Assembly (NCBI GenBank): GCA_045535465.1
Contig: JAZSLS010000100.1
Coordinates: 559 to 64,558 of the forward strand
Origin: Eubacteriales bacterium
Lineage (GTDB): Bacteria > Bacillota > Clostridia > Oscillospirales > CAG-382
DNA: 64,000 bases
Direction: 5' to 3'
Translations under genes and position numbers: made by a program
The notes under the pieces: generated by a model
Told to the model about the DNA's origin: nothing
Databases searched by the model: none
What the model saw: only the letters and a program-made list of their open reading frames with translations
Part shown: positions 4,935 to 25,139 of the stretch, one piece after another
How positions within the stretch are numbered: the first letter of the stretch is position 1
Layout: the number at the start of each line of letters is the position of its first letter

Positions 4935-6100
4935 GGCTTGAAAGTGCAAACCTAATAAAAAAGCTTATCTCTGCAATAGATGCCAAAACGGGCTATAAGC
5001 ACTTAGACCTGACCTCTGCTGTGCAAAGCCTTTTTGACGGAGTGGCTATGCCTGTCGGTACGGTTGCGTTGCCCGCAGCAAGCTCATTTCAAAGCCCTCA
5101 AAGCATAAAAGCTCTGATAAACGCCGCAAATACCGTAACGGGCAAGGAGGACAAAACTCTTACCGATGCAGTGCAAAGCCTTTTTGATTTGTATGTGGGT
5201 GAAAAGCCAATCTACTCCTTCGGTGTACTGTCAGATCTGCACATACAGTACGCAACGGGTGTGGAGGATTTAAACAGAGCCTTTGCCTATCTTGAAAAAC
5301 GTGTTCCGTTTACTTGTATTTGCGGCGACCTTGTTGCGTGGGCAAGCGTGGAAAATATGGCGCAATACAAGAGCTTGGTGGTAGATACCCCTTGGGATAT
5401 GGAGATATACGAGGTAGCGGGCAACCACGAAAGCTACCCCGAAATGGGTGTAACAGGCAACGTTAACGAAGCCCTTTATACTCAAAGCACGGGCAACGGC
5501 TTGTATTATTCCTTTGAGAAAAACGGGGATGTATTTATAATGCTAAGTCTTAAGACGGACGTGCCAAGCGTTACTTTCCCAAGCGGAGCGCTGGCTTGGC
5601 TTGAAAACACTCTTAAAGCTAACAAAAACAAGCGTTGCTTTGTTTTTGAACACGTTCAAGATGCAAACGACCTTACGGCAGACCCTTCCCATAGGTACAG
5701 CAATATTCTCGCAGGCGTAGACGGTGACAAATTTTTAAGCCTTATGAGAGAGTATAAAAACGCCGTGTGGTTTCACGGTCATACTCATTTATCTGTCACT
5801 GCCGATAGAAAGGGCGCATATCCCGTAGGTCACGAGGCGGGCTACAAATCCGTTCACGTTCCATCCTTGGTAAGCCCAAGGTATTACAACGCCAATACAA
5901 ACGCCGTTGAGGATTATTACTGCAAAAACGGTGTAACGGTTTACGGCGGTGTACACGCCGAAGGCTACGTCTGCGACGTTTATAAACACAAAATAGTGCT
6001 TCGCTCCATAGATTTTGCAAAGCAATACTTCGACGCAAGCTGGAACGCCTACTACGAAGCGGAGCCGATGGACGAGCATATTTATGCTTTGATAACTTAG
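4931..6100 (+). CDS. calcineurin-like metallophosphoesterase with duplicated N-terminal module
   Basis: ATGA overlap with the upstream gene. Phosphoesterase motifs: DLH, GDLV, GNHE, GHTH. A 50-aa internal duplication (LTSAVQSLFDG / LTDAVQSLFDL). No signal peptide. Confidence 0.8.
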   Translation: MRLESANLIKKLISAIDAKTGYKHLDLTSAVQSLFDGVAMPVGTVALPAASSFQSPQSIKALINAANTVTGKEDKTLTDAVQSLFDLYVGEKPIYSFGVLSDLHIQYATGVEDLNRAFAYLEKRVPFTCICGDLVAWASVENMAQYKSLVVDTPWDMEIYEVAGNHESYPEMGVTGNVNEALYTQSTGNGLYYSFEKNGDVFIMLSLKTDVPSVTFPSGALAWLENTLKANKNKRCFVFEHVQDANDLTADPSHRYSNILAGVDGDKFLSLMREYKNAVWFHGHTHLSVTADRKGAYPVGHEAGYKSVHVPSLVSPRYYNANTNAVEDYYCKNGVTVYGGVHAEGYVCDVYKHKIVLRSIDFAKQYFDASWNAYYEAEPMDEHIYALIT

Positions 6101-18649: not shown

Positions 18650-19138
18650 TATATGATAAAAAGCGGCAAAGCGCCGCTTTTCCTACTTAACAAAATAAAA
18701 TGTTGTTTTTTGCGTTGTGAATAGGTGCGTTTTATAAGAGCAAAACAAAAAGCGGAGGGTATGGAGAAGGGAAAATAGGCTCGAATGAACGAACTAAGGC
18801 GCAAACTGTACTAAGTACAGTAAGCCGAAAGTTCGTGCATAGCAAAAAACATATAAATCAGTCAAAAGGAAAAGCGGCAAAGCGCCGCTTTTCCTACTTA
18901 ACAAAATAAAATGTTGTTTTTTGCGTTGTGAATAGGTGCGTTTTATAAGAGCAAAACAAAAAGCGGAGGGTATGGAGAAGGAAAAATAGCATTGAATGTA
19001 CGAACCAAGGCGAAAGCTGTACTAAGTACTGCGAGCCGCAGGTTCGTGCATAGCAAAAAACATATAAATCAGTCAAAAGGAAAAGCGGCAAAGCGCCGCT
19101 TTTCCTACTTAACAAAATAAAATGTTGTTTTTTGCGTT
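18650..19138. repeat. 211-bp tandem direct repeat, 2.3 copies, each carrying a GC hairpin/T-tract and a variable hairpin
   Basis: Equivalent G residues lie at 18663, 18874 and 19085, giving an exact 211-bp period. Copies 1 and 2 are identical over ~140 nt but differ at 13 of 60 positions in 18771-18830 versus 18982-19041. Copy 3 is the first 59 nt only. Confidence 0.95.
19080..19105 (-). terminator. hpt terminator hairpin (also repeated at 18658-18683 and 18869-18894)
   Basis: AAGCGGC-AAAGC-GCCGCTT is flanked by an A run and a T run. On the minus strand it is followed by TTTTCCTTTT. Confidence 0.75.
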
Positions 19139-23451: not shown

Positions 23452-23796
23452 TTATTTCCACATCATCATTTGGCAAAGCTCTGCGGCCACAAACAAAGAA
23501 ATTACAAAAACTGCTATCATATACACAATACGCCACAGTGTTTTAAGCACACCTTTAGAGGTGAAAAATGAGATAACCACGGTACACAAAGCGATAACCG
23601 ACCAAAAAATACGGGTAAAATCATTGGCGTTAAAATCGTTTGGTATTGCGTTTCCAAGCTCGTCGACCTTGGGGCATCCGCAGCCAAACCAATCTAAAAC
23701 AAAATGGCGGTTAAAATACGAGTAGGGAATAAGAAGCAGGATAAAAAGTAAAAACGGAGCCAATAACATAAATATTTTGCGTTTCACAAATACCAC
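23452..23796 (-). CDS. hypothetical small membrane protein (3 predicted TM helices)
   Basis: 114 aa with hydrophobic segments LLAPFLLFILLLIPY, IFWSVIALCTVVISFF and VYMIAVFVISLFVAA. GGAGG upstream. No family recognised. Confidence 0.6.
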   Translation of the reverse strand: MVFVKRKIFMLLAPFLLFILLLIPYSYFNRHFVLDWFGCGCPKVDELGNAIPNDFNANDFTRIFWSVIALCTVVISFFTSKGVLKTLWRIVYMIAVFVISLFVAAELCQMMMWK

Positions 23797-23864
23797 CTCC
23801 TACCTATATAGACGAATAAAAACCAAAAAACTCTCACCGGAGGGCAAATCCATTCAAAAAACAA

Positions 23865-24248
23865 TTATTTCTTAAAAATAAAAGCAATCAGTCTTTCCAA
23901 ACCGTAAAAAACTATACAGCCCACAGCGTAGCAAAGCAAGTCGGCAAAAGAAAAGGTTGTGCCCACAACGGTTGAAACCAACGTGTTGTTTTCAAAGCCT
24001 AAAAGCCTTACAATATTAATATATTGCAAAAGCTCCACAAAAGCGGCAAAAGCAAAAACGTACATAGGCAAAGCCGATACGCCTTTAGGGATAACCGTTC
24101 TGCACAAACAGCAAAGCAATATCGTTACAAGAACGTCACCGATATAGGGGCGAACAAACCCGTCGTGAACGAAAAGGGCTATAAACAGCTCTGCCAAAAA
24201 AAGAACTCCAAAAAGAACCCCGTAGGTTATGCGTAAGCGTTTTGTCAA
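23865..24248 (-). CDS. DUF2809-like membrane protein
   Basis: 127 aa with 4 TM segments. FVRPYIGDVLV resembles DUF2809 proteins as I recall them. 4-nt overlap with the upstream gene. Confidence 0.6.
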   Translation of the reverse strand: MTKRLRITYGVLFGVLFLAELFIALFVHDGFVRPYIGDVLVTILLCCLCRTVIPKGVSALPMYVFAFAAFVELLQYINIVRLLGFENNTLVSTVVGTTFSFADLLCYAVGCIVFYGLERLIAFIFKK

Positions 24249-24664
24249 AACCTTTCCGCCTTTCTGTCTACCTCTGCCCGTTCAAATTTGATCTTTACAG
24301 TATAGTCCTTGTAATTCTCCCAAAGATCTATTTCCAAAGTATAAAAATCGCCGTGGTCGACAAGCCTATCCGACATCCACCATACTGCTTCTCTGCCTTC
24401 TAAGGAGATGTTATTGCTCAAAATTTTATAATTAAAAAAGCGAATTTCCGTAACGGCACTATCGAACAATGCGCCTTCTGCATCGATTTTTAAGGTCAAA
24501 AGGTTGCGGTCGTATTTGCCCTTTTTGCCTGAAAACGTGGTGTAATCAAAAGGAAACTCTTTCGTTTCCGTCTGCAGAATACAAGCGTCGTGCAAACCGC
24601 TAACCCAATACCATTCGGGTAGATTATCGGGATGGTTGGAAAAGTATACTTTCCCTTTGCTCAT
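24245..24664 (-). CDS. hypothetical cytoplasmic protein, no recognised domain
   Basis: 139 aa. AAAGGAG RBS. No TM segment or signal peptide. The sequence looks beta-rich. Confidence 0.6.
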   Translation of the reverse strand: MSKGKVYFSNHPDNLPEWYWVSGLHDACILQTETKEFPFDYTTFSGKKGKYDRNLLTLKIDAEGALFDSAVTEIRFFNYKILSNNISLEGREAVWWMSDRLVDHGDFYTLEIDLWENYKDYTVKIKFERAEVDRKAERF

Positions 24665-24744
24665 AGCCGTTCTCCTTTCTCAGTAGGTATCTTCTGTGTA
24701 AAGTATAAAAAGATATTTTTTAGTTTTTTGTATGAATTTGAACT

Positions 24745-24926
24745 GTCGTGCATATCACGGCGAAGCCGTGTATATCATCAATACGAAGCATTGTATTTCA
24801 CCAACACGAAGTGTTGTATATCATCAAGCCGCAGGAAAATACACGCCGGTGCGTGATGATATACAGCCCCATAGGGGCTGATGATATGCACGACTGTGTC
24901 GTGATGATATGCCAAACTTGCGGCTT
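24745..24926. repeat. array of seven 12-bp motifs TGTATATCATCA (4 direct, 3 inverted) plus nested dyad symmetries
   Basis: Direct copies at 24749, 24769, 24792 and 24815. Inverted copies (TGATGATATRCA) at 24854, 24879 and 24902. Spacing is 20-25 bp. See findings. Confidence 0.85.
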
Positions 24927-24934
24927 GGATAAAC

Positions 24935-24970
24935 AAAAAGAACATTTGTCACCGACAAATGTTCTTTTTT
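24935..24970. terminator. bidirectional rho-independent terminator downstream of the tRNA pair
   Basis: AAAAAGAACATTTGTC-ACC-GACAAATGTTCTTTTTT has an 11-bp perfect stem with an A run on one side and a T run on the other. Confidence 0.85.
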
Positions 24971-24972
24971 AT

Positions 24973-25057
24973 TGGTGGGAGCGGGTGGATTCGAACCACC
25001 GAAGTCGTTGACAACAGATTTACAGTCTGCCCCCTTTGGCCACTCGGGAACACTCCC
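24973..25057 (-). tRNA. tRNA-Tyr (anticodon GUA), long variable arm
   Basis: The reverse complement is GGGAGTGTTCCCGAGTGGCCAAAGGGGGCAGACTGTAAATCTGTTGTCAACGACTTCGGTGGTTCGAATCCACCCGCTCCCACCA. Anticodon loop CTGTAAA; CCA is encoded. Confidence 0.95.
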
Positions 25058-25064
25058 CCATTAT

Positions 25065-25139
25065 TGGAGCTGGTGAAGGGAGTCGAACCCCCAACCTGCT
25101 GATTACAAATCAGCTGCTCTGCCATTGAGCTACACCAGC
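25065..25139 (-). tRNA. tRNA-Thr (anticodon UGU)
   Basis: The reverse complement is GCTGGTGTAGCTCAATGGCAGAGCAGCTGATTTGTAATCAGCAGGTTGGGGGTTCGACTCCCTTCACCAGCTCCA. Anticodon loop TTTGTAA; CCA is encoded. Confidence 0.92.

Follow-up and report, generated by a model that had tools for sequence, protein, structure and literature searches.

A two-armed hairpin array next to a tRNA operon terminator is probably a polarity-reversed member of the Gut-1 superfamily

Beside a tRNA operon in the stretch of 64,000 nucleotides analysed here (the window), a 12-mer of the type TGTATATCATCA occurs in four copies and three inverted copies, spanning 24749-24913. What kind of element repeats one word in both orientations at this place? 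An initial annotation had read it as a multi-site protein-binding region, be it a relic origin, an attachment site or a control region, and had named a highly structured RNA as the alternative. All seven copies, four direct and three inverted, lie at the coordinates which that annotation gave. Our repeat search found a 23-nt direct repeat family at 24761-24834 and a 12-nt family at 24854, 24879 and 24902, together with two dyads (24742-24757/24882-24897, 16 nt, 94%; 24815-24829/24851-24865), and TRF described a period-23 array at 24761-24827. When up to two mismatches are allowed, the 64-kb window contains 13 occurrences of the 12-mer, of which six fall within the array. In 100 shuffled windows the mean was 3.0, the highest count was 9 and 13 was never reached.

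The annotation had overlooked that each spacer between neighbouring copies is itself a small hairpin (24756-24770, 24779-24793, 24802-24816, 24842-24855, 24864-24880 and 24889-24903), with stems that vary between units. Since every spacer is a hairpin, the repeat unit is an 8-nt AT-rich linker plus a GC-rich hairpin, and the 12-mer is this linker flanked by two stem bases on either side, the last two of one hairpin and the first two of the following one. In this sense, the dyad CAGCCCC-ATA-GGGGCTG (24864-24880) that had already been noticed is real and constitutes one of the spacer hairpins, while the complementarity of AAGCCGCA (24826-24833) with 24919-24926 is also genuine and forms part of a helix that covaries across a whole family of arrays. 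The position of the array beside the bidirectional terminator of the tRNA operon was likewise confirmed, this terminator being a perfect 16-bp inverted repeat at 24935-24969. Two hairpins of the window and its outer hairpin are imperfect. The parts of the element and its neighbours are as follows, with the strand where a feature has one; types A and B are defined below.

24245-24664, minus strand: conserved hypothetical gene of 139 aa, downstream of the array and overlapping the start of a DUF2809 gene (23865-24248).
24730-24743, minus strand: far-end flank motif GTTCAAATTCATAC, a 14-mer that recurs at the far end of eight arrays.
24749-24826, minus strand: far (distal) arm, with four linkers of the UGAUGAUAUACA type on the minus strand (24749, 24769, 24792, 24815) alternating with three hairpins; from the sequence, the repeat search and the Gut-1 match.
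24756-24770: spacer hairpin CACGGC-GAA-GCCGTG, with the loop C-GAA-G on the plus strand.
24779-24793: spacer hairpin CAATAC-GAA-GCATTG, with one A.C mismatch on the plus strand (G.U on the minus strand).
24802-24816: spacer hairpin CAACAC-GAA-GTGTTG, an identical module being found in loci L287 and L346.
24825-24835: central segment CAAGCCGCAGG, 5' strand of the long-range closing helix, pairing with 24917-24927.
24842-24855: central hairpin CACGC-CGGT-GCGTG, which covaries in the family; its equivalent in locus L157 is CACAC-TTC-GTGTG.
24854-24913, plus strand: terminator-proximal arm, with three linkers TGATGATATRCN (24854, 24879, 24902) and two hairpins, aligned with 15 relatives.
24864-24880: spacer hairpin CAGCCCC-ATA-GGGGCTG, whose helix is included in the covariation count.
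24889-24903: spacer hairpin CACGAC-TGT-GTCGTG, included in the covariation count; its equivalent in L157 is CACGAC-TGC-GTCGTG.
24912-24928: outer hairpin CCAAAC-TTGC-GGCTTGG, imperfect in the window, of which 24917-24927 is the 3' strand of the closing helix.
24927-24934, plus strand: conserved junction GGATAAAC, which reads GGATAAAA in relatives and was found in the type-B arrays that we extracted.
24935-24969: perfect bidirectional intrinsic terminator (A-tract, 16-bp inverted repeat, T-tract), 100% complementary.
24973-25139, minus strand: tRNA-Tyr (24973-25057) and tRNA-Thr (25065-25139), found with Rfam, with a consensus promoter at 25210-25182.

Species-representative genomes were scanned with the pattern GTGAWATY..GTGAWATY..RATWTCAC, which gave at least 120 matches; those listed come almost all from MAGs of gut or rumen Clostridia (Acutalibacteraceae, Ruminococcus, Oscillospiraceae, 'Eubacteriales'). 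At least about 100 arrays are built alike: 3-4 linkers spaced by 20-26 nt are followed, across a central gap of some 36 nt, by 2-4 inverted linkers spaced by 20-25 nt. We call type A these classical arrays, whose linkers point to the centre, and type B those of the window's kind, whose linkers point away from it; the type-A counts given here (78 and 107 arrays, 296 spacers, 174 hairpins) were taken among the matches listed. A metagenome scan with the window's own central words recovered about 30 arrays with its linker and layout, and by blastn 24754-24937 matches about 30 type-B relatives at 70-81% identity (E 1e-18 to 1e-33). The type-B layout begins with the bidirectional terminator, followed by GGATAAA and the outer hairpin. 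Three TGATGATAT linkers with their hairpins come next, then a centre that holds the complement of the loop and 3' arm of the outer hairpin, and lastly 3-4 ATATCATCA linkers with hairpins. The stretch 24749-24969 follows this layout, since it aligns column for column with 15 other arrays and has the closing helix. Relatives have CCATTGC-TTTC-GCAATGG or CCAAGCC-TGTC-GGCTTGG as outer hairpin, and the central segment matches it in each case. The two types also share the 14-nt far-end motif GTTCRAAYTCATAC (24730-24743 in the window), which with up to two mismatches stands at the far end of eight arrays and always on the outward strand, and both types were found inside 2 kb of L157, an Acutalibacteraceae contig.

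Throughout the family, the unit is a 7-8-nt AT-rich linker (RTGAWAT) abutting a perfect GC-rich hairpin of 4-8 bp with a 3-4-nt loop. Hairpin sequences vary, with 96 distinct stems in 174 type-A hairpins among the matches listed, and hairpin modules recur in arrays at unrelated loci. On viral contigs, a loose three-word pattern hit mostly coding sequence or AT-rich tandem repeats and one true array (L013). Matches of a stricter pattern on viral contigs were mostly of another kind, namely palindromic GTGATATCAC operator-like arrays of ~55-kb gut phages that are devoid of hairpin spacers.

The regularity of these spacers is seen in both types. Among the type-A matches listed, a stem of at least 4 bp is present in 91% of 296 spacers as against 8% after shuffling, and 160 of 174 stems start immediately at the border of the linker. 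In both types a long-range helix encloses the terminator-side arm. In the window CAAGCCGCAGG (24825-24835) pairs with CTTGCGGCTTG (24917-24927) over 11 bp and closes the arm of three linkers, and relatives carry other versions of this helix (CATTGCGAAAG/CTTTCGCAATG, CAAGCCGACAG/CTGTCGGCTTG, CAAGTCGCAGA/TCTGCGACTTG). For a covariation count, 16 type-B arrays were aligned on a structure of six local hairpins plus the long-range helix: 95.2% of the paired cells were complementary, compared with 69.3% in shuffled alignments, and the covariation score was 0.604, compared with 0.155 in shuffled alignments and 0.06-0.09 in controls with slid partners. In these 16 arrays pairing in the long-range helix reaches 98.3%, and both sides have changed in 7 of the 11 pairs. 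The type-A closing helix (TTATATTCGCC/GGCGAATATAA) exists in 21 different covarying forms, with the distance constant at about 92 nt, among the matches listed. Covariation gives strong support to the hairpins and the closing helix; as both are kept by compensatory change, the element is selected to fold as a single strand. The perfect stems could instead come from frequent replacement of modules or from template-switch correction, and not from function.

At gathering thresholds, an Rfam scan of the window returned the tRNAs only. In an E-value scan, the minus strand from 24826 to 24747 matches positions 1-77 of the Gut-1 model (RF01706) with 27.0 bits (E 0.002-0.006), which is below the Gut-1 gathering threshold of 50 bits; other type-B arrays reach 26-33 bits. 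When thirteen loci of the family were re-scanned with Rfam, their arrays scored 52-88 bits as Gut-1, sometimes in both arms, each in its own sense. The window aligns to the model with the linkers UGAUGAUAU, GGUGAAAU, UGAUGAUAU and GUGAUAU and with three hairpins, all with CUUCG loops, so this arm has the three hairpins, the UGAWAU linkers and the CUUCG-like loops in linker sense that mark Gut-1. The first Gut-1 hairpin (UCGCC-loop-GGCGA after UUAUAUU, by the upstream terminator and in the sense of the upstream gene) is lacking in the window, where the terminator-side hairpin is CCAAAC-TTGC-GGCTTGG and the adjoining linkers read in the opposite sense.

The Gut-1 RNA motif was described by Weinberg et al. 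(2010; PMC2864571) and is curated as an RNA in Rfam; it has since been an orphan motif known only from uncultured human-gut sequences. Our search of the literature on Gut-1 or RF01706 found nothing later than that original paper. In the authors' Stockholm file, the flanks of the seed sequences contain inverted AUAUCAC linkers and hairpins directly after the motif, and one seed sequence has a tRNA and a terminator directly before it (PMC2864571, supplementary file 95). Given this inverted set of linkers and hairpins in the seed flanks, the curated Gut-1 motif is one arm of a larger two-armed element. The window shares with Gut-1 the three small hairpins, the UGAAAU/UGAUAU linkers, the CUUCG-type loops in linker sense, the gut Clostridia hosts, the frequent location just past a tRNA gene and terminator, and a second inverted arm alongside. 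It differs in its linker (AUGAUAUA, whereas that of Gut-1 is GUGAUAUU), in its outer hairpin (CCAAGCC/CCATTGC type instead of UCGCC) and in a linker polarity that is reversed relative to the terminator and the closing helix, while the Rfam model spans one arm only and does not include the closing helix. By these features, the window element is best described as a sub-threshold, polarity-reversed variant of the known Gut-1 family. By the initial annotation's own account, a known Rfam family or repeat class explaining all the copies would refute its reading. This is essentially what was found, with the nuance that the Rfam family accounts for one arm, below threshold, and a large repeat class for the whole element.

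The arrays occupy a characteristic position in their genomes. Both types are anchored to a perfect bidirectional terminator. Among the matches listed, 78 type-A arrays have enough flank, and in 63 of them a terminator facing inward lies no more than 110 nt away on one or both sides; a terminator of this kind also abuts the short arm in type-B arrays. Exact linkers average 2.2 per array on the terminator side and 3.7 on the far side in type A; the window has 3 and 4. Arrays often lie on the 3' side of a tRNA gene, at up to 300 nt in 26 of 107 type-A cases and at up to 200 nt in 14 of 33 type-B cases. Most of these tRNA-linked arrays are 54-96 nt away from tRNAs of many identities, the array is always downstream, and a terminator separates the two in every case. 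Also, one array was found 3' of a tmRNA gene and one 3' of a 5S rRNA-tRNA cluster. Other genes that end at the terminator are ordinary protein-coding ones with diverse housekeeping or carbohydrate functions, for example those for RhaA, PPDK, glycosidases and transporters, and some arrays sit between convergent terminators. No transposase or integrase occurs among 38 genes ending at terminators of related arrays, and no RAYT-like or other transposase-like family was found among their flank genes. A search for one gene family on the far side was negative too, as the far-side ORFs form no family and none of them belongs to that of the 139-aa gene of the window. An Rfam E-value scan of the far-end flanks gave Gut-1 and a tmRNA gene only. 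In the window, HMM tests covered the three ORFs at 23452-24664, and the ORFs lying up to 5 kb from the array were looked through by eye; from their translations, we take the neighbours to be BioY-, BirA-, MraZ- and RsmH-like genes and polysaccharide-synthesis genes. Some loci carry more than one array. L338 has two that are 83% identical and 750 nt apart, placed before an XRE-type gene and a 23S-rRNA-IVP-like gene, and L157 has three, behind a tRNA cluster and before three unrelated small membrane-protein genes. Tandem modules of terminator, array, promoter and small unrelated gene are seen in L157, L338 and L284.

The 139-aa ORF downstream of the window array has about 290 homologues that carry no annotation and whose contexts differ. 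In L001, the promoter of the homologue is preceded by a type-A-like array whose linkers read ATGAAAT; others have just a TATATCAT...ATGATA pair at the promoter (two of them) or nothing. The protein gave no Pfam or NCBIfam match, its AF2 model is all-beta (pLDDT 78.6), and a PDB fold match to this model was not found. It was considered as the binding partner of the array and set aside, in view of the lack of a domain match and of a recognisable DNA-binding fold in the model. The closest relative of the gene (79% aa identity) is at the same locus in L373, where the array is identical to that of the window at 67 of 68 aligned positions and lacks exactly one 23-nt unit; as the 139-aa gene is a recombination mosaic, this array identity above the coding identity is not readable as selection. 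The deletion in L373 fuses the loops of two neighbouring hairpins (the unit of window 24779-24793 and the next) into a chimeric, imperfect hairpin.

Whether such an element works as RNA or as DNA may be approached through its base pairs and loops. Among the type-A matches listed, Watson-Crick pairs make up about 95% of the stem pairs, whereas G-T accounts for about 1% and A-C for about 1.5%, neither strand being favoured, and the type-A closing helix has 7 G-T and 6 A-C pairs. In the 16 aligned type-B arrays, base changes are nearly always two-sided and hardly any one-sided intermediates occur. A C-G pair closes 184 of 227 distinct hairpins, and triloops (76) are as common as tetraloops (75). 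Loops of the form C-GN(N)A-G are present in 103 of the 227 hairpins (45%) on the ATWTCAY (anti-linker) strand and in none on the linker strand. The two arms being inverted, these loops fall on opposite strands and no single transcript has them in both arms. Promoter-like sites that face inward at the far end are not enriched (21 of 88 arrays versus 18 of 88 shuffled), those facing outward are modestly so (31 of 88 versus 18 of 88), and no convincing plus-strand promoter was found upstream of the window array. The two types are anchored identically at the terminator and are opposite in the polarity of linkers and loops. Taken together, the scarcity of wobble pairs, the one-strand loops, the arms on opposite strands and the lack of promoter enrichment at the far end argue against a simple sRNA gene.

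The core GCGNAGC/GCGNNAGC is known as a 'mini-hairpin DNA' motif, whose stability is far greater in DNA than in RNA; it occurs in single-strand initiation sites and in N4 hairpin promoters (PMC13037366). We propose that the folded element may act strand-symmetrically: either strand, once single, would show one arm of C-GN(N)A-G mini-hairpins with ATWTCAY linkers exposed, while its other arm would bear the complementary linkers. The role could be exerted at the DNA level, in single-stranded DNA at replication or through hairpin extrusion, or it could be a two-strand role at gene boundaries similar to that of REP/BIME or BOX elements. We lean slightly towards such a DNA-level or two-strand boundary role over a classical one-strand sRNA gene. 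Overall, and as a cautious estimate, it seems on balance probable that the array represents a single instance of a modular element located between genes, which belongs to the Gut-1 superfamily and to its polarity-reversed subtype (type B), with a strand-symmetric folded role for which this slight leaning holds. A more specific version is speculative and on the whole unlikely to be right as it stands: Gut-1-type arrays would be strand-symmetric DNA mini-hairpin arrays that act in single-stranded DNA as SSB-excluding, priming, restart or recombination signals, and would mark the boundaries of small and self-contained modules of accessory genes that gather just downstream of tRNA, tmRNA and rRNA genes. 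To our knowledge, classical integrons have not been reported in this phylum. The points listed for the boundary-signal reading are the lack of wobble pairs, the opposite-strand loops, the lack of a promoter and the tandem modules in L157, L338 and L284.

Other readings have to be weighed against this strand-symmetric role. A Gut-1-like sRNA gene would produce a plus-strand transcript from near 24745 to the terminator at 24935-24969, with tandem hairpins, then a closed three-hairpin domain and then the terminator, and its AU-rich linkers would bind protein or RNA. The annotation's own alternative, a highly structured nucleic acid that abuts the terminator at 24935-24970, does fit the data much better than double-stranded DNA sites. 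That this nucleic acid is an RNA agrees with the judgement of the Rfam curators (PMC2864571), with the covariation of the helices and with a terminator whose end of the element never varies and which stands where one expects an sRNA to finish. The plus strand of the window array folds far better than shuffles (z = -5.8), two G.U-compatible positions of the closing helix favour this strand, and GNRA-type loops are typical of RNA too. In addition, a closing helix that spans ~90 nt can form only in a long single-stranded stretch, which RNA offers readily and DNA more rarely. However, the minus strand also folds far better than shuffles and nearly as well as the plus strand (z = -4.5), wobble pairs are nearly absent and have no strand bias, the loop polarity flips between arms, no promoter was found upstream on the plus strand and the far end is not enriched in them across 88 arrays, and classical arrays combine the same anchoring with the opposite linker polarity. 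An sRNA gene is thus a possible, if rather doubtful, explanation. It is improbable, in turn, that the arrays are a dispersed selfish or neutral repeat (MITE- or BOX-like) that spreads or turns over by recombination and slippage and settles in the 'safe' gap after terminators. Such a repeat would account for homologous arrays at unrelated loci before unrelated genes, for hairpin modules common to several arrays, for a whole 23-nt unit gained or lost between close relatives and for the two neighbouring arrays of L338 (83% identical, 750 nt apart), but neither a transposase nor an integrase occurs in the flank genes of related arrays and no target duplications were seen. Moreover, arrays from different families of Clostridia keep the strict architecture, the covarying long-range helix and the rule of loop polarity, a sign of selection on structure.

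The readings that rely on double-stranded DNA fare worse, since a multi-site protein-binding region of that kind predicts neither covarying hairpin spacers nor an 11-bp covarying long-range helix. If the array were an operator, a protein recognising the 12-mers would control the operon of the 139-aa and DUF2809 genes. The array does end 81 bp before the ATG, two other 139-aa homologues have the TATATCAT...ATGATA pair at their promoters and L001 has another array, gut phages use GTGATATCAC palindromes as operator-like arrays, and outward promoters are modestly enriched at far ends (31/88 versus 18/88). Nevertheless, this control region, which the annotation had also considered, leaves the compensatory changes in the hairpin spacers and the closing helix unexplained; related arrays stand between convergent terminators or before many ordinary and mutually unrelated genes, and the 139-aa protein has no recognisable DNA-binding fold. 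We find it very improbable. Least credible of all, to the point that we give it almost no weight, is a relic plasmid origin with iterons or an integrase attachment site at tRNA-Tyr. Direct and inverted copies of one word at ~22-23-bp phasing, about two helical turns, next to a tRNA gene do resemble iterons and arm-type att sites. Yet blastn of the element gave no match in 72,556 plasmids (PLSDB) or 50,697 phages, and a search of the 64-kb window for a second copy of the tRNA-Tyr/tRNA-Thr 3' end gave chance 8-9-mers only, so the att duplication is missing downstream. Neither a rep nor an integrase gene was seen among the genes by ~100 related arrays of the matches listed, a terminator stands between array and tRNA in every case, and the covarying hairpin spacers and the many chromosomal copies are further differences from such sites.

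The strand-symmetric role that we favour has partial parallels in known systems. REP/BIME elements of enterobacteria and pseudomonads are extragenic, lie after terminators or between convergent genes, consist of inverted palindromic units in many copies and form DNA and RNA structures. Gut-1-type arrays resemble them in extragenic placement, inverted palindromic units and presence in many copies, but REP/BIME have a conserved hairpin sequence and a link to the RAYT transposase, whereas here the hairpins vary and the linkers are conserved. The conserved palindromic unit with a 5' GTAG-type tetranucleotide that marks REP/BIME is not seen in the arrays, with 96 distinct stems in 174 hairpins, nor is an associated RAYT seen among the flank genes. 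The pneumococcal BOX element (boxA-boxB(n)-boxC) is modular and intergenic, has a variable number of tandem sub-units and folds through complementary ends. Its variable tandem units recall the 23-nt unit gained or lost between the window and L373, but its conserved modules are of 45-59 nt and it is not known to have linker/hairpin alternation, terminator anchoring or tRNA association, all three of which occur in Gut-1-type arrays. Mini-hairpins are also found at single-strand initiation sites, such as the origins of phages G4, St-1 and alpha3 and ssiA of RSF1010, and in N4 hairpin promoters (PMC13037366). The likeness to these lies in the short perfect stems and in the one-strand C-GN(N)A-G core of 45% of the array hairpins. 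In contrast, those mini-hairpins occur singly or in small sets on phage or plasmid single-stranded DNA and have known primase or polymerase partners, while the arrays are chromosomal, with 6-8 hairpins on opposite strands in the two arms.

With these results, the Gut-1 family may be redefined as a two-armed hairpin/linker array anchored to a terminator, of which the curated motif is one arm. It is a common element in named gut and rumen families of Clostridia (Acutalibacteraceae, Ruminococcus, Oscillospiraceae), with a preference for sites 3' of genes for stable RNAs. Its two polarity types are mirror images of each other, and its base-pair and loop statistics are unusual for an RNA. Annotators gain with this a reason to extend the Rfam Gut-1 model. 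Whether the element acts as RNA or DNA and what reads its linkers can now be tested directly in strains that carry it. Should the DNA-level reading be true, the chromosomes of abundant gut bacteria would bear structural signals of a new class. Furthermore, the boundary-signal reading, if true, would imply a cassette-like organisation of accessory modules in gut Clostridia.

The 139-aa gene downstream of the window array (24245-24664, minus strand) is a mosaic between close relatives when aligned with its nearest homologue at L373 (148-564). The 5' and 3' ends of both copies are near-identical while the middle shares only ~70% identity, and because of this pattern the comparison suggests a recent recombination inside the gene. 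Elsewhere in the window, at 18659-19138, a tandem repeat with a unit of 211 bp (2.3 copies, 95% identity) lies upstream of polysaccharide-synthesis genes, and its unit carries a terminator-like GC hairpin.

Among the database loci with homologues of the 139-aa gene, a layout with repeated tRNA segments was found at the following places:
L127, 2740-2945
L130, ~330-560
L128, L129 and L132, the same layout

In L127 and L130, a conserved GGTATTCAGA and the reverse complement of the T-arm of the same tRNA lie after the tRNA and its terminator, then 70-170 nt of hairpins and finally, immediately before the promoter of the 139-aa homologue, the tRNA 3' end again as a direct copy. This order looks like an att-type duplication left by a small tRNA-targeting element. 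In L123 (2520-2860), behind a tRNA gene cluster and also upstream of a 139-aa homologue, a unit of ~85 nt is repeated ~2.5 times in tandem. The repeats continue into a sequence that resembles a tRNA whose variable arm is long, assigned by eye to tRNA-Leu, and the unit itself resembles a tRNA that has been duplicated in part or interrupted.

Genes of the 23S_rRNA_IVP family (PF05635, four-helix bundle) are recurrent neighbours of the 139-aa gene family or of arrays near tRNA genes:
L126, L127-129 and L374, upstream of 139-aa homologues
L338, 5459-5809, adjoining arrays near tRNA genes

A true Gut-1 array (61.9 bits) is present in a predicted viral contig (L013, 4998-5180), where TerL-like, scaffold and capsid genes lie directly downstream of it, and four tandem TAACTTGCCGG repeats follow the array at 5185-5235. 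Palindromic 10-mer arrays occur in gut viral contigs of ~55 kb:
L077, 1771-1900
L050, 1709-1800
L384, 6268-6400
L402, 1677-1800

Each has 6 or 7 palindromic 10-mers (GTGATATCAC / ATGATATCAT) with a period of ~14 nt. On one side of them is a promoter-like TTGACA...TATAAT, and on the other the RBS of a gene that begins MAETFNQMIRFPKDL. The array is operator-like. It has in common with Gut-1 the 7-mer of the linkers but, unlike Gut-1, it lacks hairpin spacers.

Tandem arrays were also found behind tRNA genes:
L338, 5868-6840
L157, 1650-3660
L284, 149-980

These loci contain 2 or 3 tandem arrays, each followed by a different small gene, encoding XRE-HTH, 23S-rRNA-IVP-like, Zn-ribbon or membrane proteins. 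Every small gene comes with a promoter and a terminator of its own, and therefore the layout is cassette-like.
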